A stretch of DNA of 64,000 nt from Verrucomicrobiota bacterium (GCA_029247315.1 JAQWLM010000107.1:7459-71458); one strand, 5' to 3'. Positions 2,729 to 55,187 are shown, numbered from the stretch's first letter. The notes: generated by a model not told the origin, from the sequence alone. Numbers and translations: made by a program.

Positions 2729-4192
2729 ATGCACATGACAACACGCAGTCCCATAAAGATGATGGACCCCGTTAAGTTTGATCGACGCCAGTTCATCTCA
2801 AAATCGGCGCTCGGCTTCGGAAGCATTGCATTGCAGTCCCTTCTTTGCCAGGAGGCCCATGCCAAGCCGGGTGCTGGTTTTGGACTACCCCACCTGCCAG
2901 CCAAGGCCAAAAATGTCATATGGCTATTCATGCGAGGTGGTGTCAGCCATATGGAAAGTTTTGATCCCAAGCCACATCTGAACCGATACGCAGGAAAAAC
3001 CATCTCAGAGACCCCGTTTCATGAGGTTCAAGCCTCTGAAAGGCTGAAAAAAGTTAGGGTGGTCGTGGTTAACGATGCCAATGGGCAGCAGCGCAATAAA
3101 CTCTTCCCGCTTCAAACCGGATTCAGACACTACGGACAATCGGGTCTTTCCATCAGTGACTGGTTTCCACAGATCGGATCATGCGTCGATGACATTGCGG
3201 TGCTTCGCTCCATGTGGACGACGGACGACAACCATGGTGCACAGGTGCAGTTTCATTCTGGTAGACATATGTTGGATGGCCGTTTCCCAACCATCGGTGC
3301 ATGGGTTACTTACGGACTCGGATCGCTGAATGAAAATTTACCCCAGTTTATCAGCATGGGGCCTAGATATTTTGACATGCGCGATGGGCATTACCTGGGT
3401 CCCGCATACGATGCTGTCCCATTAAAGGTCGATCCGGAGTCCCCCTTGGATTTTGCCAAGCCCTCACGACCACTGCCAAGGCCCGTTCAGCGCGCAACAT
3501 TTGATCTCATCGAACGTTTCAATCGCCTTCGTTCCCAGGTTTTTCCAGAGGATGCGGCATTGGAAGCCCGTATCCAATCCTACGAACTAGCTTTTCGCAT
3601 GCAGTCTTCCGTTCCGGACATTCTTCATTTTCAGCATGAACCTTCGCATATCCGCACCATGTATGGATTGGATCATGAGATGACCCAACCGTTTGGAAGG
3701 CAGTTATTGACCGCTCGCCGACTCGTTGAGAAAGGTGTGCGTTTCATACAGATCATGCATGGTGACGGTGCCGCCGGAGCTTGGGATGCGCACAGCAATT
3801 TAAAGGACAACCATGCGAAACTATCGGCACAGGTAGACCAACCCATCGCAGGTTTGCTCAAGGACTTGAAGCAGCGCGGAATGTTGGATGAAACCATGGT
3901 CGTCTTTGCGACCGAGTTTGGACGCACACCTGGATCTCAAAACAACGATGGCAGGGATCACCACCCTTTTGGCTTCTCTGTCTGGATGGCTGGCGGGGGT
4001 ATCAAGGGAGGCATGGCTCACGGAGCGACCGACGAAATTGGTTTTCATGCGGATCAGCAACCGCACTACGTCACCGATGTACACGCCACCTTGCTCCATC
4101 AGCTTGGTCTTCACTCGCATCGGATGGAAATTCCGCAACACAAGCGCCTGGAGGCAGACTTTGGGCATGTAATCCATGATATTCTTGCCTGA
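2729..4192 (+). CDS. DUF1501 family protein (sulfatase-like fold, Tat-exported)
   Basis: Tat-like DRRQFI; [24 protein letters not shown]; SYELAFRMQ; EFGRTP and GRDHHP motifs; usual partner of PSD1 genes, 3 bp downstream. Confidence 0.92.
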
Positions 4193-42108: not shown

Positions 42109-44301
42109 TCAGTGAATGGACTTGAGCCATTCCATGAGGAGCTGATGCTGCCTGGATTGAAACCGGTTCACGTCATCGGCTTGAATGAGTTTAATCTGGG
42201 ATGACTTGGACTGGGCCCGTGCAACGCAGACAGCAACCTCATCGGCATCCGCATGACGATCCTTCCTTGCTGAATAAACAAGACAGGGACGTTGCCCAAG
42301 TGCTCCAAGGAGATCATCGTAATCATACGGTAGGCTGGGCTCCTTTCCATGAAACAAACCCAGCTTCGGCAGAAGACCGTGCCATTCCCACCAGCGGCGT
42401 ATGCCGCCAGTGGGCTTGAAGTCATGATCCGTCCGCATCGGAGTGAAGCCACAGAACGTTGCCACTCCCTTGACACGCTCGTCCATGGCCGCCGTGTGCA
42501 AGGCCACCATACCTCCCAGGGAGTATCCGACCAAGACCACACGGTGAACGTCCAGACCCGGTAATTTCCCTTCGCTAATCCCACCCAATCCATGAACAAA
42601 GTCGAGCGCAGATTGGACGTCAAAGACCATCCGGCCAAGCTTGGACCATTTGGGGTATTTTTCATAAAAAGCCGCCCCCTCGAGCAGGCGATCTCCAAAC
42701 CCACATTGATCATAGGACAAAACAGCATAACCTGCCTGTGCAAGGCGATAGTAGATCGTCGTACCCTCCACACCGTATCCCTCGTTGGAACCATGAGAAT
42801 AGTTAAATGGGTGCAACCAAATGACCACTGGCAACGGTCCTGAATGTTTCACTGGATAAGCCAGATTTCCATGCACATGGGCACCAAAACTGACTGGCAT
42901 GCGGACCACTCCCTCGGGTTTCCACCGATCCCGGGACCACGGAGCCACACCATATTCACTTTCCTTCTGGAGACGAAGCGGTCCTTGCCATATTTGATCA
43001 AATGCCTTTGGGAGCTGCCCAGACATCCACTCAAGACGATCTTTGATACCCGACCCTCGCCCCGGAGGTAGCATGGCCTCGGAATCCTGTTGCTGCCGCC
43101 AAAATTTCCAATCGAAATCGTGCAACAGTCGTTCGGGAAATTCAGAGCGTTCTACCCCTGCCCGACCAAAGGCCCAGTCAAACCAGTCGAGGTTTACCTT
43201 GATATGCGCATCGGTGATAGGGTTGTGGTTTCCTTTCCTGTAAAGAAGCCCCAGTTTTTCTGGTTCTCCAAGGAGTCTGAATGCCTTCTTCGCCTCGAGG
43301 TAAGTGCGTTCGACGGCAAAGCTAGGGTCACTACCGTCGTTGTAAGCCGTATGAATGAGACAGGCACGTGGAGCAATCAGGGCCAACAGGCCGTTGCTTT
43401 CAACGGGCAATGCGTTCTCTCGCCCGAAATAATCCTTCACCCCATCCAAGGCCCATGCCTTGGGAGCATCCATCACCGTTTCCATGAAGGTTTCCCGCCC
43501 AGTAAAACGATATCCCGCGGCAGCCGGAGAACCGGCACTGCGAGAAACCACCGCTTTGATGCGTTGATCAAATGCCGCCGCATAAAGGGATTGTTTTCCA
43601 TATCGAGAATGCCCGATGATCCCCACCTTTTCTGGATCGATCTTTACATCATTATGGTGGCTTAATAGATAATCCAGCGCACGACCCGCTAACCACGACT
43701 GGATGCCAAGTGAGGAGCACCATGAAGCTTCCGGGTATTCTGACTGAAACAAACGCCAAACCGTCTCAAAACCAGGAAAGTCCTTCTCGTGATGATGCAC
43801 ATCTAGTCCCGGGTAGAAGCATGCAACATAACCACGTCTCACGGCGGCTTCACCCCATGCGATCTGGTAATACCTTGGCTGCGTCAGTAATAGGGGGAAA
43901 CCTCCTGGATCCGCATCACCTAAGGTTTTCGGCAACAGAAGACGAATCTCGAAAGACCTTTTATTCGGAGTATCAAAGGTCAATCGCACATGGCGCACCC
44001 GAACGCCATCTTTCCTTTCCTCTTCATCCAAAACCTGAGATTCAAGCAAACTCGGTGATCGTTTAGGAAAGTTTCCAAGATAGGTCTCACACCATTGTGC
44101 CATGATTTCAGAACGGCGTTCCTGCCACTCGCGGGATGATCCCACCTTTTCCCCATCCAGGAACTGGAGTACCGGCGGAAGGTCCGCACGTAGCTTGGCT
44201 TTCGTTACATCGTCCCCGAACAAGGGCATGCTACAGGCAAGGTAAGCTAAAAGGAGGTGTAAAACAGGCCCTGCAAGAACATTAGGGTGACGTAAATGCA
44301 T
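42109..44301 (-). CDS. Secreted tandem alpha/beta-hydrolase (CE15 glucuronoyl-esterase-like plus second esterase domain)
   Basis: Signal peptide; W..RR.EI; nucleophile elbows GHSRYGK and GYSLGG; LIAPR. Start refined to MHLRH (44301). Confidence 0.8.
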   Translation of the reverse strand: MHLRHPNVLAGPVLHLLLAYLACSMPLFGDDVTKAKLRADLPPVLQFLDGEKVGSSREWQERRSEIMAQWCETYLGNFPKRSPSLLESQVLDEEERKDGVRVRHVRLTFDTPNKRSFEIRLLLPKTLGDADPGGFPLLLTQPRYYQIAWGEAAVRRGYVACFYPGLDVHHHEKDFPGFETVWRLFQSEYPEASWCSSLGIQSWLAGRALDYLLSHHNDVKIDPEKVGIIGHSRYGKQSLYAAAFDQRIKAVVSRSAGSPAAAGYRFTGRETFMETVMDAPKAWALDGVKDYFGRENALPVESNGLLALIAPRACLIHTAYNDGSDPSFAVERTYLEAKKAFRLLGEPEKLGLLYRKGNHNPITDAHIKVNLDWFDWAFGRAGVERSEFPERLLHDFDWKFWRQQQDSEAMLPPGRGSGIKDRLEWMSGQLPKAFDQIWQGPLRLQKESEYGVAPWSRDRWKPEGVVRMPVSFGAHVHGNLAYPVKHSGPLPVVIWLHPFNYSHGSNEGYGVEGTTIYYRLAQAGYAVLSYDQCGFGDRLLEGAAFYEKYPKWSKLGRMVFDVQSALDFVHGLGGISEGKLPGLDVHRVVLVGYSLGGMVALHTAAMDERVKGVATFCGFTPMRTDHDFKPTGGIRRWWEWHGLLPKLGLFHGKEPSLPYDYDDLLGALGQRPCLVYSARKDRHADADEVAVCVARAQSKSSQIKLIQADDVNRFQSRQHQLLMEWLKSIH

Positions 44302-44450
44302 GGGATAGCATTTGAAGTTCGTCCCTGAGATTGCAAGTCCATTCTTATCAAAACAAAGGATCTCCTCCACTCCAATCATCGGCTTACAGGAAACAATGGA
44401 CACAGATGTGCCCTCTGGTAGAATCCACTCATCAACACGTCATGGAGGTG

Positions 44451-45251
44451 ATGAAAAAATGGAAATTGCCGCAGGCCTTGGGAATGTTCAGTATCATCCT
44501 GGGGATGATATGGACGCTTGTCAGTGGGACATCCTGTGGGACCACTCTTAGGAAACCGGTCGTCCGTCCTCCCCATATTGATGGAGCCAGTTTTGTGGGC
44601 AACACGGCCTGCTCGGACTGTCATACCGACTTTGTTGATATTTTCCCATCAAGCCCGCACGCGCGTTACTACCACGAGGATGAGTCGCTAGGCCACACGA
44701 CAGGTTGTGAATCCTGCCACGGTCCCGGAAGCCTCCACGTCAGGGCTGGCGGCGGCAAGGGAGTCTTCATACACAACCCGGGGCGCGATCCATCGACATG
44801 TCTGGACTGTCATCAGGAGATCCATGCTAAACTTCAACTACCAAGCCATCATCCTGTTCTTGAAAACATGATGAACTGCGTTGAATGTCACGATCCTCAC
44901 GGGAGAGACATCATGAAACCCAGCGGCGGCTTGAGTTTCGCGCGCCTCAACCAATCCTGCGTTGCATGTCACCAGGAACAAGCCAGACACTTTGTCTTTG
45001 AACATGAAGCCATGCGTGAAGGATGCACCGAATGTCACGATCCGCACGGATCGGTCAATCCCAAGATGCTCATACAGCGTGATTCCAATCTTTGCCTCAA
45101 ATGTCATGCTCAAATCCAGTTTACAGGATCTGGTGACACGTTTATCGGAAAAGAAGCCCATGGATTCAACATGCAGGCCGGGAGTTGCTGGACTGCCGGT
45201 TGTCACACCCAGGTACATGGATCGATGGTGGATCCAAAAATGCGGTTTTGA
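44451..45251 (+). CDS. MtrA/DmsE/PioA-family multiheme c-type cytochrome (8 heme motifs)
   Basis: CSDCH, CESCH, CLDCH, CVECH, CVACH, CTECH, CLKCH, CWTAGCH; family motifs GCESCHGPGS.H, PSHHPV, CHDPHG, FVFEH, VHGS; hydrophobic signal ending in Cys. Confidence 0.9.
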   Translation: MKKWKLPQALGMFSIILGMIWTLVSGTSCGTTLRKPVVRPPHIDGASFVGNTACSDCHTDFVDIFPSSPHARYYHEDESLGHTTGCESCHGPGSLHVRAGGGKGVFIHNPGRDPSTCLDCHQEIHAKLQLPSHHPVLENMMNCVECHDPHGRDIMKPSGGLSFARLNQSCVACHQEQARHFVFEHEAMREGCTECHDPHGSVNPKMLIQRDSNLCLKCHAQIQFTGSGDTFIGKEAHGFNMQAGSCWTAGCHTQVHGSMVDPKMRF

Positions 45252-45276
45252 ACCCAATAGGAAGTAGGAAGATGAT

Positions 45277-47664
45277 ATGAGGATGCCCCACATTAGCGTC
45301 GTGCCAGGACATCCCCTGCGTGGTCAGATAGCTGCACTGGTCTTGATGACCCTCACCATCACGGTCAGGAACCTGGGCCAGGACCTTCCCGCACCCGCAG
45401 ATCTCAACGTGGATTTCACGCGCGATGTCCTGCCCATTCTCGAGGAATCCTGTCTACGTTGTCATGGTGCTGAAGACCCCAAGGCGGGTTATCGCATGAC
45501 CACACGCGCCTACCTCATGACCGAGGGCGATTACGGTGCAAACATCATTGAGGGAAACAGTGCGGAAAGCACGCTGATTCAATACGCCAGCCATTTGGAA
45601 GAGGACATGGAAATGCCTCCACTTGGCAAAGGAGACAAATTGACTGATTCCCAGATAGGCATCCTGCGTGCCTGGATCGACCAAGGCGTGCCATTTGAGG
45701 ATATTCCAGAGGAATCCTTTAATTTCAAGGCCAGCCCCCACTTACGCTTTATCGGGGTAAGTGGAAACAAGGCAGCGTTCCAGGAGCATCATTGGATGCA
45801 GGAAGGCTTCACCGGAGGATTTGAATCCTTTGAATGGAGCCAGACCATGGAGGGTGGGCGCTCATTCACAGGCAAAGGCACCCTCATCACTCCTCATAAT
45901 CGGCATGCCATCGAGGCTGAAATTGCCAAACGTGACCTGGGTTTTTTCCGTTTTGGATTCGACCAGTCACGCACCTATGATCATGCGCTGGGCGGGATCT
46001 CTCCCTTGACAGGACTGGGGCCTTGGACACTGGATCGCCCACTCCACCAGAACCTTTCCAGTGCATGGTTTGAGTTTGGGCTGGATCGTCCCAAACTACC
46101 AAGAATCACACTTGGATACACCTACCGAGAGCAGGATGGAAGCCAATCCATGCTCCAGTGGGGACCTGCTTTCGACAGTGCCTTCAACAGCCACAACATC
46201 TACCCTGCCTGGAAGCGTGTGGACCAGCAAACCCACATCATCCACTTGGATATGACACACGCATGGAAAGGATGGCAGATCGAGGATCGTTTCCGGGGTG
46301 AATTCTACGCACAGGACAATGTGCTCCAAACAGGGGATTTCATTGCTGGTGGGGACACCCAGCCCTCATCGGTTTCCACGCATCGAGATGATTACACCCA
46401 TTTTCAGGGATCCAATGCCCTCACCGTCCAGCGACGCATTAAACCGTGGTGGCTGGCCAGTGCGGGTTACTATGTTTCCCGTCTTCATGGTGACGCCACT
46501 CTGAGCTTTGGTAACCAGGATCCCACACGCCCCGGAACTACGTCTTCGCCCTTCAGTTCCCGTGGCATCGAGATACGTAACGATTCCCACGTCATGAATG
46601 TCAACAGTCTCCTTGGGCCTTGGGAAAATTGGACAGCCTATGGGGGAATTCAACCGGAATGGTCACGCCGCAAAGGGGCCGGGAACACCACTTTTTTTGG
46701 CATCCCATCCAGGTTCGGCAGCAACATGGACCGTTTTCAGGTTGAAGAAAATGTTGGGCTGCGCTACCGAGGATTTGCAGATGCGGTTTTCTACGCGGAT
46801 GCTCGGATCAAACAGGAATCCATAGGACAGTCAGAAGAGGGATTACTGGACGATGGTTTTGCGGCAAGGGAGGATTTCATGCGTAAGACCAATGCGCGTG
46901 GAAACCATGTATCCATTGAAACGGGAACCACGCTTTCACCATGGAAAAAATGGACCTTCAACCCCACTTACGGCTACAAACGACGTCACCATACCTTTCG
47001 TCATCCTATCGATTCCGACCTCGGAACCGAACCCGCAAACGGGTATCCAGCCTTCATCCTTGAGCGTCTTACAGAAGGCCACAACTGGGGTGTCAAGACG
47101 CGCTGGAAACCATTGAACTGGATTCATTTTCGACTGTCATACGAAAACGGACAAACCGAGTATCGAACTGGCCTCGGATCCATCGCCCTGAACGGCAAGG
47201 CATATCCTGGTGGCAAGGCCCATTCAGGTAATTACGACACACATGCCTACCGTCTCACCATGACACTCACCCCAACACACCGCTGGTTCTGGACCATTTC
47301 CTCGGCCTACACAGACGAACGCATCATCTCTGCCATCAACGACAACCTGGTGATTGCACCTTATGATGGAGACCTTTACTCACTCTACACCTCATGGACA
47401 TTTCTCTGGAACAAGACCACACAGCTCCAGGCCGGCTATACTTTCAGCCACGCTGATTATGGCCAGACCCTTCCTCTTGGACTGCCCATGGGTTCGCGAT
47501 TTGATCAACATTCATGGCAATGCAAAATTCAGAAAACACTCAGCAAGAATGGCACTCTGGGACTCCAGTACGGCTATTATCTTTACAGTGATGATCTCGC
47601 CGGGGGGTTCCTGGATTACGAGGCACACGGCATCTTTGCCACATGGAGCCGGGTGTTTCCATGA
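45277..47664 (+). CDS. MtrB/PioB-like outer-membrane beta-barrel with fused N-terminal monoheme cytochrome c (PSCyt1) domain
   Basis: Signal peptide; DFTRDVLPILEESCLRCHG...MPP...LRAWIDQG; then about 650 aa of alternating aromatic-rich beta strands ending ..IFATWSRVFP; 25 bp after the multiheme cytochrome. Confidence 0.8.
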   Translation: MRMPHISVVPGHPLRGQIAALVLMTLTITVRNLGQDLPAPADLNVDFTRDVLPILEESCLRCHGAEDPKAGYRMTTRAYLMTEGDYGANIIEGNSAESTLIQYASHLEEDMEMPPLGKGDKLTDSQIGILRAWIDQGVPFEDIPEESFNFKASPHLRFIGVSGNKAAFQEHHWMQEGFTGGFESFEWSQTMEGGRSFTGKGTLITPHNRHAIEAEIAKRDLGFFRFGFDQSRTYDHALGGISPLTGLGPWTLDRPLHQNLSSAWFEFGLDRPKLPRITLGYTYREQDGSQSMLQWGPAFDSAFNSHNIYPAWKRVDQQTHIIHLDMTHAWKGWQIEDRFRGEFYAQDNVLQTGDFIAGGDTQPSSVSTHRDDYTHFQGSNALTVQRRIKPWWLASAGYYVSRLHGDATLSFGNQDPTRPGTTSSPFSSRGIEIRNDSHVMNVNSLLGPWENWTAYGGIQPEWSRRKGAGNTTFFGIPSRFGSNMDRFQVEENVGLRYRGFADAVFYADARIKQESIGQSEEGLLDDGFAAREDFMRKTNARGNHVSIETGTTLSPWKKWTFNPTYGYKRRHHTFRHPIDSDLGTEPANGYPAFILERLTEGHNWGVKTRWKPLNWIHFRLSYENGQTEYRTGLGSIALNGKAYPGGKAHSGNYDTHAYRLTMTLTPTHRWFWTISSAYTDERIISAINDNLVIAPYDGDLYSLYTSWTFLWNKTTQLQAGYTFSHADYGQTLPLGLPMGSRFDQHSWQCKIQKTLSKNGTLGLQYGYYLYSDDLAGGFLDYEAHGIFATWSRVFP

Positions 47665-50702: not shown

Positions 50703-53700
50703 TCATTCCGCAGGATTGGCATTCAAGTCCTGCAGGTAATCCAGCAAGCCAGCAAATTCCCGCATCGTGAAAGGTTCCAGCAAGCCCCCGGGCATGATGG
50801 AGCTTTCGAGTATGTTACGTTCATGGATATCAGACTTGAGAATCACATGTTCCTGGGAAAGAACATCTCTCAAACGGACGCTGTCCCCGGCTTCACTGAC
50901 AACAAATCCTGTCAACTCCGTACCGTCGTGCAGGACGACAGCATGTGAGGCAAATCCTTGGGCTATGGTCTTGTTCGGCATCAGGATAGCTTCAGCCAGT
51001 TCGCCGCGACGATACGTACTGGCAATATTTCCCAGGTAAGGCCCCTTGGGGGCTTGATCTTGACTTACGGTATGACAGCTTGCACAGCCTGCACGAATGA
51101 ATACGGCCTCTCCAAGAGCAACATCTCCCTGAAACGCATCCATGGAATCAAGCACAGCATTTGTTTCCATGGAACCAATCACCGGGCTCGAATCCTTTTC
51201 GCCTGTGGCAATTTTCAACCTTCGTGCAGCATTCTGTGCAGCCTTGGCGACATCCGCATCAAAATCCTTCAAAGCCGCACGGATACGTGTATCAAGATAG
51301 TGATTCCCCATCCTTGCGGCAGCCTTGATGAAAACAACACGCCTCCGGGCATCCAACCATGCCTCATCAATGAGACGATGCTCCGGTCTGATTGAGGAAA
51401 GTTCGGGTCCTTTCCGCGTTGCCAGCGTCAGTAGACCGACGTGAGCCCAGTAAGCCATGGGATCCCCTGCATGTTCCACACAGATGCGCTCCAGATGGGT
51501 GTGTCGGCCATCAAGACCGGGATATCCAAGAAAGGCACGTCGCGCCGCCTCTTTTTCCTTTCCGGTTCCAGTGCTTCCATCCAGATGTCCCATGGCCATC
51601 ACCATGGCCGGAAGCGCCGCTTCCACCTGGCTTCTTGCAAGTCCAACAACCGCATGCGACGATACATGCGGTGGCATTGCAGGATCCATTGCTGCAGCGA
51701 TCAATATGGGCACCGCCTTGATCGGCAGTTCCTGAAAAGAAGCCACTTGTGTGACAGCGGCGGGCACATGAGTGGAATCCTCCGTTGCGAGAGCGATGAT
51801 CTTCTCCATGGCCTTCATGGAACGAATACGATTGCGATTCATTTCTCCAATAAGCCACGCCGCATCTTCGGCTGAGGCTTCGGCAAGACTCCCATGCAGC
51901 GTGGCCAGAATGCTTTCCGAGTATTTCCAGGTCTCCAGTTGATAATATGGCCCTCGGGTATCAGGCCGTGTTCCCCAGCTCTCCCCTTTCCATTCGCCCT
52001 CGCGGTGATACAGACGACACAGAACGCTTAGAAGGAATCTCTGCACCCCCACCCTGTCAGGATCGGCCAACCTTTCCGTCAGGGCCTTCACTACCTCAGG
52101 ACGGTGCATCCTCATGAGTGCCATGGCGGCACCCGCCCGCTGAGCCTCGCTGCTGGCTTCCGTATCCAGCACTCTGAGGCAAGCTTGAAACCCCTCAAGC
52201 TGGGCCAATCCCCTGTAGGCAGTGTGTGCGATTACGGCGTCCTCATGCCCAAGACTCAGGGCCATTCCGTCGGCAACCCCCAGGTTACCCTGGCGGGTTG
52301 AGGCGATCAGCGCCTCCAAACGGGTCCGCGGATCCTGACTCCGAAGCCCACTCGTAAACAATTCTGGTGGGACAACTCCCACCTTTCCCCGGGTGAGGTG
52401 ATCCAATCCCATGTCACCAAGAGCTCGGAACACAAAAGCCTGCAGTAAGGGAACCTCAAGCAAAGGTGTTACCATACGCATCACATCGGAACTTTGACTG
52501 CTGTCAACACCACGCTGGGTGATGGCATACAAGGCTGCCACGCGGGTCCGAAGTTCCTTTTCGGGATCCAATGCCAAGCTCACCAGAGCGCGCCGGGTAG
52601 CATCGGAGGGAGCACGTCGCAAGAGGGTGCGTTGCGCCTGCAGCACGCGTACATGACTTGGTGACTCCAAGGATTTTACGAGAATATCATCCTCAAGATG
52701 TTCGTAATCGGGAAGGGGCTCCGGGGTATAATCCCTTGGAGTCACCCTTACGATATATCCATGTGAAGGACCAGCCCAGTTGAAGGTTGCCGGACCTTTC
52801 CAGCTTGCCTGATAAACCCGACTCATGCCATCCACGTCCGCATCCGTTGGACGTGTAACCTTGATGAAAGGGATGGGTGGAGCGTTTTCAACAAAGGTAG
52901 CCCCCTGACGGACCACACTGTGTCGGAACGTGGCTCCTCTGCCCCAGTCACAGGTAAACGGAGCGTTTCTCCATGCTTCCGGAAAACCTGGTTCATGGAT
53001 ATAAACCGAACCACATCCCGATCCCCCACCATAATCTGCTAGAGGCTGGACATGCTCATTAGAAAAGTGCTTGTAAAGACTCGGATACCCGTGATCTTCC
53101 AGTCCAGAGAAGTGATGCAGTCGTACATCCCAACCACCTCCATCGTTGGTGTTATCACGTGCAAAAAGGTCCAATAACGGACTCATCGGGGTGCCTAGGA
53201 TGTTGCGTGTACCTGTCGCAAACAACTCCAGGCCTGACCCATCGGGCCGAAACCGGATCACCCCTCCGCCTCGATGTTGAAGATGTCTGCCATCGCTTCC
53301 CACGGCATCCATGAATCCAAAGTCACCGCCTGCAACGTAAATCCATCCATCGATACCCAGTTCAAGTCCGTTGGTTGTGTGGTCCGGTGGACGTTGATCG
53401 AAATCAAAGGCAATGCCTGAAACGAGACGTTGGGAATCCTCGGCCACGCCATCCTGGTCGCGATCAAAGAATACGCTGATATGGGGTGGATGCAGCAGGT
53501 AAAGTCGGTCGTGATCCCAAACAAGTCCCCGGGGTGAATCTATCTCGCGAATGAACTGTTTTACCTCATCGGCTCGCCCATCGGCGTCAGTATCCCGCAG
53601 GCGCAGGACGCGACCACGTCGTGGGGACCGACCGAGAGAACCATTTCCATCACTGGAAACATAGAGATTGCCCTCCGGAGAGGCAGCCACATACACAGGG

Positions 53701-55187
53701 TAATTTGCCGTTTCGGCTGGTGCGAAAAGGGTCGCATCAAAATCCTCAGGTACCACAACATCGGCAAGAACACGCGATGCTTCTTCATCACTCAAATTAG
53801 AGATCCTTGGTTCCACGTTACCTCCCTTGGCAAAGGAATCCTCACTGATGATTGTTTTATCCTCGGAAGGCTTGAATGCGTTATTCCCCACAATGGGATC
53901 AAGTGACTTGATACCATCGCCTAGTAAGGAAATTTCCCATAAACTGATCCAACCGCCACCTTGGGTGGAAAGACCATTTATCCTGAGATACTTCATTTCT
54001 GATGACTTGAATCTTGTCGTCGTGTCACCTTTCCGGGTATTGCCAGAGGCGTCGACAAGAAGATTCCAGGATTGGGCGTCCAGGGAACCTTCTAGAGTGT
54101 AACCATAGATGGTATGGGGGTTTTCCCACTTGATCTTCACCCCCCTGAGCACTTGAGGCTCTTGAAAGGCCAGTTGAAGCCATTGAGGTTGGCTGTTGTC
54201 GGAGGCACACCATCGCGTCTGCTCGGAGCCATCGATCGCCATCCAGGGCCATCTTTGATCCTGAGTCGTGCTGGCGCTCACCCTTACAGGAGTTCCAGGC
54301 TTGGCGGATGTCGACGATGCACTTATTTTCGCTACTGGTGCAGCGGTGGTATCCTTCATAAGGACCACCGTGTGTTTCCCCGTATAGGGTGTGAGGTATG
54401 CCTCATCCAACTTTCCGCAGGTCCATAGCAGTCCGCGGGTTACGAGATCAAGATAGCGTGAATCTGCAACCGTGACGTTGTTGTGCCCCAGACTGGTGCT
54501 GAAGCTACGGATCCCTTTTATTTTGTTGACCCAGGCAACGACGGCTTCAACGCTTTTCTGCTTCCCGTTCCTCTCCATGATCTGAACACCACTTGCAATA
54601 GGCTCCGCACCCATTATTTGGACATTGTTATAGAGCTCTTCCCTCTCGGTCGTCCAATCCTCCAGCGTCATTGAGATAGGATGATCCTTACTCTTGTAAC
54701 GGATGTTAATGGGAAGCTGTGGACCATGCCCTGTTGATTGAAGTCCAAGGTGTTGAAACCAGGTGTCATCGCCTGTTCTGAAACTGTGCATGGCGCAATG
54801 GAGATGCACTGATGGAATCTCCGCGTGGGGATGCATTAGATTCGCAATCACTTTAGGATCAGTAACTTCAGCGGCACATTCATCGTGAATCACTACATCA
54901 TAACCGTCTGCCCAATGAGGATCATGATAGATGGACAAAGTAGGGTGAGTTGTTTGATCTTCTGTCCACAACACGTCGACCCGAACATTGGCGCGGGCCT
55001 GAATTCCTTTGGATAAAATGGCATGCTGCTTTGCATAATCGTGGCAACACCCACCGGCTACAAGCAAGGCCTTCAGGGACGCGGTGGATGCTTGTGGCAA
55101 ACTTTCCGCTTGCAAGCTTGCACAAGTCAGAACGCCACTTAAAAAATTTATGACCCTGTTAAGGGATGATGATACCATGATCCCCAT
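50703..55187 (-). CDS. PVC-type membrane-bound dehydrogenase: ThuA + F5/8 (discoidin) + sorbosone-DH propeller + HEAT repeats + cytochrome c
   Basis: GGCCHDY/LGH (ThuA), AIDG..TRWC..WLQL (F5/8), D.DGRAD, NGL.LG.DGWIY, G.RN, HEAT region, CASCH..GP.L, S.MP.GL. Confidence 0.88.
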   Translation of the reverse strand: MGIMVSSSLNRVINFLSGVLTCASLQAESLPQASTASLKALLVAGGCCHDYAKQHAILSKGIQARANVRVDVLWTEDQTTHPTLSIYHDPHWADGYDVVIHDECAAEVTDPKVIANLMHPHAEIPSVHLHCAMHSFRTGDDTWFQHLGLQSTGHGPQLPINIRYKSKDHPISMTLEDWTTEREELYNNVQIMGAEPIASGVQIMERNGKQKSVEAVVAWVNKIKGIRSFSTSLGHNNVTVADSRYLDLVTRGLLWTCGKLDEAYLTPYTGKHTVVLMKDTTAAPVAKISASSTSAKPGTPVRVSASTTQDQRWPWMAIDGSEQTRWCASDNSQPQWLQLAFQEPQVLRGVKIKWENPHTIYGYTLEGSLDAQSWNLLVDASGNTRKGDTTTRFKSSEMKYLRINGLSTQGGGWISLWEISLLGDGIKSLDPIVGNNAFKPSEDKTIISEDSFAKGGNVEPRISNLSDEEASRVLADVVVPEDFDATLFAPAETANYPVYVAASPEGNLYVSSDGNGSLGRSPRRGRVLRLRDTDADGRADEVKQFIREIDSPRGLVWDHDRLYLLHPPHISVFFDRDQDGVAEDSQRLVSGIAFDFDQRPPDHTTNGLELGIDGWIYVAGGDFGFMDAVGSDGRHLQHRGGGVIRFRPDGSGLELFATGTRNILGTPMSPLLDLFARDNTNDGGGWDVRLHHFSGLEDHGYPSLYKHFSNEHVQPLADYGGGSGCGSVYIHEPGFPEAWRNAPFTCDWGRGATFRHSVVRQGATFVENAPPIPFIKVTRPTDADVDGMSRVYQASWKGPATFNWAGPSHGYIVRVTPRDYTPEPLPDYEHLEDDILVKSLESPSHVRVLQAQRTLLRRAPSDATRRALVSLALDPEKELRTRVAALYAITQRGVDSSQSSDVMRMVTPLLEVPLLQAFVFRALGDMGLDHLTRGKVGVVPPELFTSGLRSQDPRTRLEALIASTRQGNLGVADGMALSLGHEDAVIAHTAYRGLAQLEGFQACLRVLDTEASSEAQRAGAAMALMRMHRPEVVKALTERLADPDRVGVQRFLLSVLCRLYHREGEWKGESWGTRPDTRGPYYQLETWKYSESILATLHGSLAEASAEDAAWLIGEMNRNRIRSMKAMEKIIALATEDSTHVPAAVTQVASFQELPIKAVPILIAAAMDPAMPPHVSSHAVVGLARSQVEAALPAMVMAMGHLDGSTGTGKEKEAARRAFLGYPGLDGRHTHLERICVEHAGDPMAYWAHVGLLTLATRKGPELSSIRPEHRLIDEAWLDARRRVVFIKAAARMGNHYLDTRIRAALKDFDADVAKAAQNAARRLKIATGEKDSSPVIGSMETNAVLDSMDAFQGDVALGEAVFIRAGCASCHTVSQDQAPKGPYLGNIASTYRRGELAEAILMPNKTIAQGFASHAVVLHDGTELTGFVVSEAGDSVRLRDVLSQEHVILKSDIHERNILESSIMPGGLLEPFTMREFAGLLDYLQDLNANPAE

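Follow-up and report, generated by a model that had tools for sequence, protein, structure and literature searches.

A heme-bearing porin beside an octaheme cytochrome in Verrucomicrobiota: a probable MtrAB-type outer-membrane conduit

Can an outer-membrane porin carry, in its own polypeptide, the heme through which an electron conduit meets the periplasm? The question is raised by two adjacent genes in a 64,000-nucleotide stretch of a Verrucomicrobiota genome (GCA_029247315.1, JAQWLM010000107.1:7459-71458; the whole stretch is called the window here), one encoding a multiheme cytochrome homologous to MtrA and the other a long β-barrel protein with a PSCyt1 heme domain at its N-terminus. Porin-cytochrome conduits are the Gram-negative route of electron exchange with minerals, humic substances and electrodes. 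To our knowledge, all characterised conduits combine a heme-free porin with separate periplasmic relays, and Cyc2, the only studied fusion of heme and porin that we know of, has no multiheme partner. The locus in the window joins both designs, a heme-porin fusion and a multiheme partner. We consider it probable, at roughly 0.6, that the pair forms an MtrAB-type outer-membrane conduit in which the porin itself supplies a heme as periplasmic entry or exit point.

The heme domain of the porin is recognised by the Pfam family PSCyt1 (PF07635) on residues 59-116, with 52 bits against a cut-off of 22 (expectation value, E, 1.1e-13), and the same family is matched by 26/26 members of the porin family. 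In the 26-sequence porin alignment (A1), C59, C62, H63, M113, P114 and P115 are invariant. In class-I cytochromes, c551 for example, the MPP methionine serves as axial ligand, and ligation of the PSCyt1 heme by His63 and Met113 is therefore likely. The AlphaFold2 model places helices at residues 47-63, 77-81, 99-104 and 124-136, with lower confidence than the barrel, as expected for a domain modelled without its heme. When a sequence profile of the porin was compared with the PDB, only heme domains were matched (5c2v_A, 4rlr_A and FoxE, 5mab_A). Two homologues of 914-919 amino acids (P0031 and P0062) have two tandem cytochrome c domains ahead of the barrel and group with the fragment P0192 in the tree described below.

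The remainder of the porin has an MtrB-like fold. The AlphaFold2 model, calculated from A1, contains 26 strands and reaches a mean predicted local distance difference test score (pLDDT) of 82.4 and a predicted template modelling score (pTM) of 0.73, with most barrel blocks at 80-97; the long C-terminal β-barrel of the original prediction is thereby confirmed in the model. The top Foldseek match is MtrB of Shewanella (6r2q_B; E 1.4e-14, target-normalised template modelling score (TMt) 0.71, 726 columns), and the runners-up are TonB-dependent receptors with a TMt of at most 0.47. VIA-align likewise ranks 6r2q_B first, with a Z-score of 22.3 and 3.4 Å as the root-mean-square deviation (rmsd) over 563 residues; model residues 144-794 are superposed on residues 47-695 of the chain, and the LptD model that comes next among the credible rows has a Z-score of 14.5. 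At the level of sequence the link to MtrB is faint. The identity to 6r2q_B is 11-12%, and Pfam and NCBIfam find nothing in the window porin besides PSCyt1. In a protein atlas, the clusters nearest to residues 140-795 are verrucomicrobial hypothetical proteins, one of them automatically named 'MtrB/PioB family' (score 0.95).

The cytochrome contains seven CXXCH motifs and one CX4CH motif (CWTAGCH) and matches Pfam Paired_CXXCH_1 with an E of 2e-20. Its conservation was assessed in an alignment of 60 sequences, 59 from related loci and the window copy. All seven CXXCH motifs, the C246-X4-C251-H252 motif and the histidines 70, 96, 150, 185, 199, 237 and 256 are conserved to 100%, and His134 to 98%. 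These eight additional histidines provide one candidate distal ligand per heme, and the cytochrome therefore looks like a bis-His octaheme protein. A profile built from a separate 28-sequence alignment (A2) matched the MtrA chain 6r2q_A, which bears an odd molecule label in the PDB copy searched, at an E of 3.1e-35 in two stretches, profile residues 111-262 aligning with chain residues 177-325 and 49-151 with 62-168. The CX4CH motif aligns with the last CXXCH of this chain. By the numbering of the MtrA motifs, the octaheme protein presumably corresponds to MtrA minus two internal hemes. All 60 sequences have seven CXXCH and one CX4CH motif in place of the ten CXXCH motifs of the MtrA/DmsE decahemes, and the NCBIfam GSU2203-family profile scores 166.3 bits, below its cut-off of 325. 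By its motifs and profile matches, the cytochrome is an octaheme protein with a conserved lipobox that is homologous to MtrA and is not a member of the decaheme MtrA/DmsE group. The original prediction of an MtrA-type cytochrome beside an Mtr-type porin is thus upheld by the profile match to 6r2q_A and the structural match to 6r2q_B.

The cytochrome is also a predicted lipoprotein, probably anchored through Cys29. Across the alignment, S, A or G occupies position -1 of the lipobox in 60/60 sequences, and L, F, V or I occupies position -3 in 49/60; a second locus set repeats the pattern in 28/28 cytochromes. In the window copy, with VSGTS|C, position -3 is less canonical. AlphaFold2 modelling of the cytochrome alone, without hemes, gave a pLDDT of 46.4 and a pTM of 0.22; the model was unusable. 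A few orthologous cytochromes have eight CXXCH motifs (L086:3827-4684 on the minus strand, L029 and L034); the one of L086 has no CX4CH, and its atypical last site appears to have reverted to the standard motif.

Gene pairing and wide distribution characterise the system. A word-indexed search returned 504 proteins, of which the best 120 listed all contain PF07635 and align over 94-100% of the query; at the source they are called 'hypothetical', 'mono/diheme cytochrome c family protein' or 'Planctomycete cytochrome'. An exhaustive search of representatives at 50% identity yielded 179 clusters at E up to 1e-30. Species-representative genomes contain 59 loci with a full or nearly full fused porin, and the record titles are nearly all Verrucomicrobiota, several of them Limisphaerales. 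In 56/59 of these loci the gene immediately upstream, on the same strand, is that of the octaheme protein; the remaining three have less than 235 nucleotides of upstream sequence. The survey of spread that the original prediction had proposed was carried out in the order to which the window belongs, in which the fused porin is found in 226/401 sampled genomes (match E up to 1e-50), corresponding to 140/250 high-quality genomes and 109/165 genera. These counts are frequencies and not statistics, since related genomes are not independent. The matches listed for the order start at about query residue 35 or earlier and hence include the heme domain, with few exceptions. The genome of the window (4.79 Mb, 94% complete) has one copy of the fused porin. 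Some contigs with the gene pair are filed as Bifidobacteriaceae, Akkermansia muciniphila, Haliangiales or Chloroflexi (L005, L007, L010, L031, L032 and others); these odd names probably stem from errors of binning or labelling in the public databases.

Relatives that consist of the barrel only also exist. They are about 660-710 amino acids long, have their own signal peptides and match query residues 143-791 with an identity of 24-31%. Across the phylum, 31/401 sampled genomes contain a barrel of either kind. A lipoprotein with seven CXXCH motifs and one CX4CH motif is encoded upstream in 24/25 barrel-only loci, and 11/25 contain a further open reading frame (ORF) with at least three CXXCH motifs within their 1.5-kb flanks. 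A quick IQ-TREE tree was calculated from the barrel region of 61 rows and rooted at the midpoint, after 18 rows had been dropped (opposite-strand shadow ORFs, porins cut at locus ends and porins too diverged for the barrel alignment over 450 residues). In this tree, the 29 fused proteins form one clade with a Shimodaira-Hasegawa-like approximate likelihood ratio (SH-aLRT) support of 99; P0192, a fragment cut at its N-terminus, falls into it as well. With midpoint rooting the fused clade is nested among the barrel-only forms, which tentatively suggests a single fusion event.

Association of the two proteins was assessed by co-folding porin residues 36-795 with cytochrome residues 30-266, each with its own alignment. 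The interaction prediction score from aligned errors (ipSAE) was 0.89, 0.89 and 0.88, versus 0.00 for all three controls; the mark applied is reached by 58/80 solved complexes and by 2/110 mismatched pairs. The runs had at least 76% of their contacts in common, with a partner pLDDT of 73-75. The confident interface involves every second residue of porin strands between 170 and 770, i.e. the lumen-facing ones, and cytochrome residues 60-75 and 122-266. Because the contacts alternate in this way, the co-fold model threads the cytochrome through the barrel, and a location of the cytochrome in the barrel lumen is a prediction of this model only.

From these elements the following arrangement is proposed. 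The cytochrome would be exported and lipid-anchored through Cys29, and its eight c-type hemes would form a wire two hemes shorter than that of MtrA, sheathed by the 26-strand MtrB-like barrel. The N-terminus of the barrel would face the periplasm, as in MtrB, and carry the PSCyt1 monoheme, which a linker of about ten residues would keep at the periplasmic mouth of the barrel. The PSCyt1 heme would then serve as a fixed entry or exit site between the wire and soluble or inner-membrane carriers, and the tethered monoheme may replace a diffusible relay. We infer that the heme domain lies in the periplasm, that it is in electron contact with heme 1 of the wire and that the cytochrome is lipidated.

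Several results weigh against a conduit of this kind, and they concern three profile and modelling tests that the original prediction had named. The Pfam profile MtrB_PioB (PF11854) has no match in the window porin at E up to 1; it is matched by 3/26 family members, with a best E of 1.2e-7. The cytochrome scores 142.6 bits with the NCBIfam DmsE-family profile TIGR03508, below the curated cut-off of 192.2, so that the membership in this decaheme family is lost while the homology to MtrA stands. The co-fold score may reflect likeness only, because an MtrAB complex has already been solved. Finally, the co-fold threads the cytochrome through the barrel, but its confident interface includes no residue of the heme domain (porin residues 36-140); a tethered heme that touches the octaheme wire is neither supported nor excluded by it.

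If the pair is a conduit, the next question is in which direction the electrons would pass. We lean tentatively towards uptake from outside into an aerobic chain, which we regard as possible, over outward flow. Class-I hemes with His/Met ligation are usually of high potential. The lean is taken because the PSCyt1 heme is probably of this kind, because no CymA-type quinol dehydrogenase and no nearby surface multiheme cytochrome were found, because cupredoxin and Sco1/CusF copper genes often adjoin the pairs of the fused clade, and because the host appears to be aerobic and marine, with an alternative complex III and two heme-copper oxidases. The NapC/NirT/CymA family (PF03264) was not found in the 94%-complete genome of the window, and another ORF with at least three CXXCH motifs lies within 6 kb in 1/62 fused-clade loci, where it encodes three class-I cytochrome c domains. 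Within this range, the absence of an MtrC-type cytochrome and of CymA, on which the original prediction had remarked, is borne out. The genome contains two matches to heme-copper oxidase subunit I (COX1) and an ORF similar to the pentaheme protein ActA of alternative complex III; from its gene content the organism looks like an aerobe. On other contigs of the same genome, three ORFs (C39:6339-8693, C113:16508-18541 and C157:1338-3278) encode proteins of 646-784 amino acids with an N-terminal membrane anchor and eight CXXCH motifs each, one of them with C-terminal repeats that resemble tetratricopeptide repeats by eye. These three proteins are candidates for inner-membrane or periplasmic partners.

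The opposite direction has its own merits, and we rate it as somewhat unlikely. Here, respiratory electrons would pass to acceptors outside the cell, namely Fe(III), Mn(IV), humic quinones or particles, in anaerobic respiration or reductive iron acquisition, and the tethered heme would collect them from periplasmic carriers. MtrAB homologues are best known as exporters. Two observations on the same phylum favour export and speak against uptake. The isolates Limisphaera vallis and L. sibirica use ferrihydrite and ferric citrate as electron acceptors for growth, and one sentence in PMC13608581 reports that a porin of theirs bears a heme motif at its N-terminus; He et al. 2017 found, according to the text of their paper, the verrucomicrobial porin-cytochrome system only in genomes from the humic Trout Bog, mostly from the anoxic layer (PMC5615132). 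The Limisphaera porin, likened by description, is a candidate member of the family described here. Export is further disfavoured by the missing NapC/CymA-type quinol dehydrogenase and by the 61/62 fused-clade loci without a nearby surface multiheme cytochrome. Moreover, by general cytochrome chemistry it is unlikely that a His/Met monoheme would donate electrons to bis-His hemes of low potential. The DNA runs that bear the locus have seawater or marine labels, and the gene content of the genome provides for aerobic respiration.

In its broadest form, the uptake reading would describe a machine, often accompanied by a cupredoxin-Ig protein and a Sco1/CusF chaperone, with which aerobic Verrucomicrobiota of marine, freshwater and soil habitats, across a whole order, oxidise extracellular Fe(II), reduced humic substances or mineral particles, the electrons passing via the tethered high-potential heme to the oxidases. 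Stated this generally, the proposal is unlikely. If it were true, the pair would be a structural intermediate between Cyc2-type fused cytochrome-porins and MtoAB/PioAB. It draws on the neighbourhood of the pair in relatives. Within 6 kb of the pair, a recurrent family is encoded in 29/62 fused-clade loci, and the two members that were scanned combine a plastocyanin/azurin-type Copper-bind domain with Big_7 Ig domains; genes of this type on the same strand are present in L003, L004, L006, L019, L021, L028, L034 and others (e.g. L034:3076-4074 and L021:4060-5034). A Sco1/SenC protein with a CusF-like N-terminus (one member scanned) is encoded directly upstream of the cytochrome in 10/62 loci. 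Other recurrent neighbours are an extracytoplasmic function (ECF) sigma factor-like protein, assigned by eye, in 24 fused-clade loci, its partner without a Pfam match in 22 loci, and a DUF1559/prepilin-like protein in 21 loci. In the second locus set, where the flanks comprise only 1.5 kb, a cupredoxin gene lies beside 1/4 fused and 0/25 barrel-only loci. In the window, neither the cupredoxin nor Sco nor the other recurrent neighbours are encoded near the pair, and the missing cupredoxin gene counts against uptake. The genome has PF00127 matches on contigs C60, C125 and C72, and a Big_7 match and Sco-like ORFs on other contigs. That the pair is self-contained, as had been held, is doubtful in view of the cupredoxin gene that roughly half of the related loci add.

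A second alternative accepts the conduit and takes the PSCyt1 domain off the electron path; the domain might then serve in docking or assembly, sense the redox state or be a periplasmic redox site in its own right. It gains from the co-fold, with its lack of a confident contact between heme domain and cytochrome, and from the octaheme partner shared by 24/25 barrel-only loci, by which the domain would be dispensable for the core complex. PSCyt1 also occurs on many unrelated proteins of the genome and the phylum, such as the product of the window ORF 95-2725, and among 18314 matches to the porin at E up to 1e-3 most appear to be heme-domain matches, judging from those listed. Against a bystander role stand the heme ligands, which are invariant across the fused clade, the shortness of the linker, and the retention of the fusion in more than half of the sampled genomes of the order; the tandem domains of P0031 and P0062 look like an extended chain. 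We hold this alternative to be unlikely.

Highly improbable is a barrel that is no redox conduit at all and acts as a transporter of solutes or metals or as a relative of TonB-dependent receptors, with the cytochrome functionally unrelated: Foldseek lists many such receptors, including the copper transporter OprC, at E of about 1e-9 to 1e-11, and copper-related genes are frequent neighbours in relatives, but their low TMt comes with an rmsd of about 10-14 Å, their VIA-align Z-scores are about 13, they have 22 strands where the model has 26 and no plug domain, and the near-universal gene pairing and the co-fold that puts the cytochrome in the lumen point elsewhere. An identity as TonB-dependent receptor was rejected on the Foldseek and VIA-align scores.

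How does the proposed conduit, with its heme-tipped porin, compare with known systems? With MtrAB of Shewanella (PDB 6r2q) it shares the 26-strand barrel, a homologous cytochrome that is predicted to lie in the lumen and a cytochrome gene immediately upstream of the porin gene. It differs from MtrAB in having eight rather than ten hemes, in CX4CH as the last motif, in the lipobox of the cytochrome, which MtrA does not have, in the N-terminal PSCyt1 domain of the porin and in the absence of an MtrC-like gene. Cyc2 of iron oxidisers is alike in architecture, in that an N-terminal monoheme CXXCH domain is fused to an outer-membrane barrel; in Acidithiobacillus it works with the cupredoxin rusticyanin. 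Its barrel has about 17 strands (PMC10654088) and it has no multiheme partner, whereas the barrel described here has 26 strands and an octaheme partner. MtoAB(-MtoD-CymA) and PioAB(-PioC) are, by their description in the literature, PMC10654088 included, also composed of a porin and a periplasmic cytochrome without a surface decaheme protein, and at its inner end their wire needs a small redox protein of the periplasm; unlike the monoheme in the porin polypeptide, their relays (MtoD, PioC) are separate proteins, and their cytochrome is a decaheme protein. The OmaB-OmbB-OmcB complex of Geobacter resembles the pair in its octaheme periplasmic cytochrome, its porin and the presence of a lipoprotein cytochrome in the complex, but it is reported to be non-homologous to Mtr, its lipoprotein is the surface dodecaheme protein and its porin is heme-free.

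The closest precedents come from the same phylum. He et al. 2017 (mSphere, PMC5615132) proposed a verrucomicrobial porin of at least 20 strands that adjoins a periplasmic cytochrome with eight conserved heme sites, to which an extracellular multiheme cytochrome is sometimes added. The barrel-only loci match this proposal, because they combine the same kind of porin with an eight-heme cytochrome and an occasional extra multiheme gene, as in the 11/25 loci mentioned above. A heme domain on the porin is unmentioned in the section of that paper that describes the system. The Limisphaera porin (2026, PMC13608581) comes from a genus that the paper places in the order Limisphaerales, and it combines an association with multiheme cytochromes with a heme motif at its N-terminus; it is the subject of a single genomic remark in which the motif is likened to MtrB, with no domain or structural analysis in the text. 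This sentence was the only mention of a heme-bearing MtrB-like porin found in full-text searches, which did not extend to figures and supplements, where the domain may already appear, and term searches in PMC7399161 and PMC10654088 returned none. The porin-octaheme pair as such has thus been proposed since 2017, and the heme on the porin has been in print as one sentence since 2026. Within the same searched literature, we found no structural, comparative or functional treatment of the heme-tipped porin. The base system is thereby not new, and the module is less unprecedented and less self-contained than the original prediction had held.

If active, the pair would be an unrecognised link to iron and humic redox cycling for very abundant, mostly uncultured polysaccharide degraders, including a marine lineage. 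Mechanistic and synthetic work would gain a compact conduit of two proteins that brings its own periplasmic terminal. The pair also offers a concrete test case for the evolutionary connection between fused cytochrome-porins and MtoAB-type complexes that is proposed in PMC10654088.

The features of the locus are collected in Table 1. Both ORFs and the spacer between them lie where the original prediction had placed them. The cytochrome ORF has an alternative in-frame ATG at 44442, and the longest ORF starts from a TTG at 44331. A scan of the region for promoters and terminators gave counts that were equal to or below the shuffle expectation, with 3 promoter sites versus 3.2 expected.

Table 1. 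Features of the cytochrome-porin locus (positions in the window)
Feature	Position	Strand	Remarks
Promoter-like site TGGACA-16 nt-TAGAAT with TG extension	44397..44424	+	just 5' of the cytochrome gene; weak; 10/12 matches
Octaheme cytochrome gene	44451-45251	+	266 aa, MtrA homologue, predicted lipoprotein
Signal peptide ending in lipobox Cys29	44451..44537	+	Cys29 invariant in 60/60
Atypical eighth heme motif CX4CH (C246-X4-C251-H252)	45186..45206	+	100% conserved
Cytochrome stop TGA	45249-45251	+	
Intergenic spacer, 25 nt	45252-45276	+	
Porin gene (heme domain and 26-strand barrel)	45277-47664	+	795 aa
Signal-peptide-like segment, residues ~1-35	45277..45381	+	hydrophobic helix 13-30 in model; homologues align from ~35
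PSCyt1 class-I-like monoheme domain, residues 47-136	45415..45684	+	CLRCH 45451-45465, MPP 45613-45621
Linker, residues 137-146 (~10 aa)	45685..45714	+	between the last helix (to 136) and the first strand (from 147)
MtrB-like β-barrel, residues 147-794	45715..47658	+	26 strands (model); 6r2q_B top structural match

The fusion had to be distinguished from an artefact of assembly. The locus is present in two DNA runs, labelled seawater and marine metagenome, and in one of them (X1) a single independent 4813-nt contig covers 44400-47700 with 17 substitutions and 0 gaps. Misassembly, which the original prediction had named as a refuting finding, is ruled out by this contig together with the full-length homologues. 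In an RNA library (X17), a 193-nt contig spanning 45109-45308 bridges both genes and has a 7-nt deletion at 45258 in the spacer, which may be a strain variant. Other pieces from RNA libraries cover 47119-47462 (X15) and 47142-47395 (X17); they attest presence in the library and are no proof of transcription.

The pair is flanked by genes for a glucuronyl-esterase-like hydrolase on the opposite strand, a GFO/IDH/MocA oxidoreductase, an acyltransferase, an aminotransferase and a nitrilase-family protein. Since none of these is evidently linked to the pair, it is regarded as a two-gene unit. The hydrolase (42109-44403, minus strand) has 764 amino acids, a glucuronyl-esterase-like and a second α/β-hydrolase domain, and is divergent from the cytochrome gene across a gap of 47 nucleotides. 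Further away, the minus-strand ORF 50703-55187 encodes 1494 amino acids with ThuA, F5/8 type C, DUF7133 and HEAT-repeat regions and a C-terminal cytochrome c domain. At the other end of the window, the plus-strand ORF 95-2725 begins with a PSCyt1 domain, the same domain type as in the porin, in agreement with the original prediction, and continues with PSCyt2 and PSD1. A gene of this PSCyt1-PSCyt2-PSD1 type with a second ORF behind it is an arrangement typical of planctomycete and verrucomicrobial genomes, and in the window a 487-amino-acid ORF (2729-4192, plus strand) lies 4 nucleotides beyond it.

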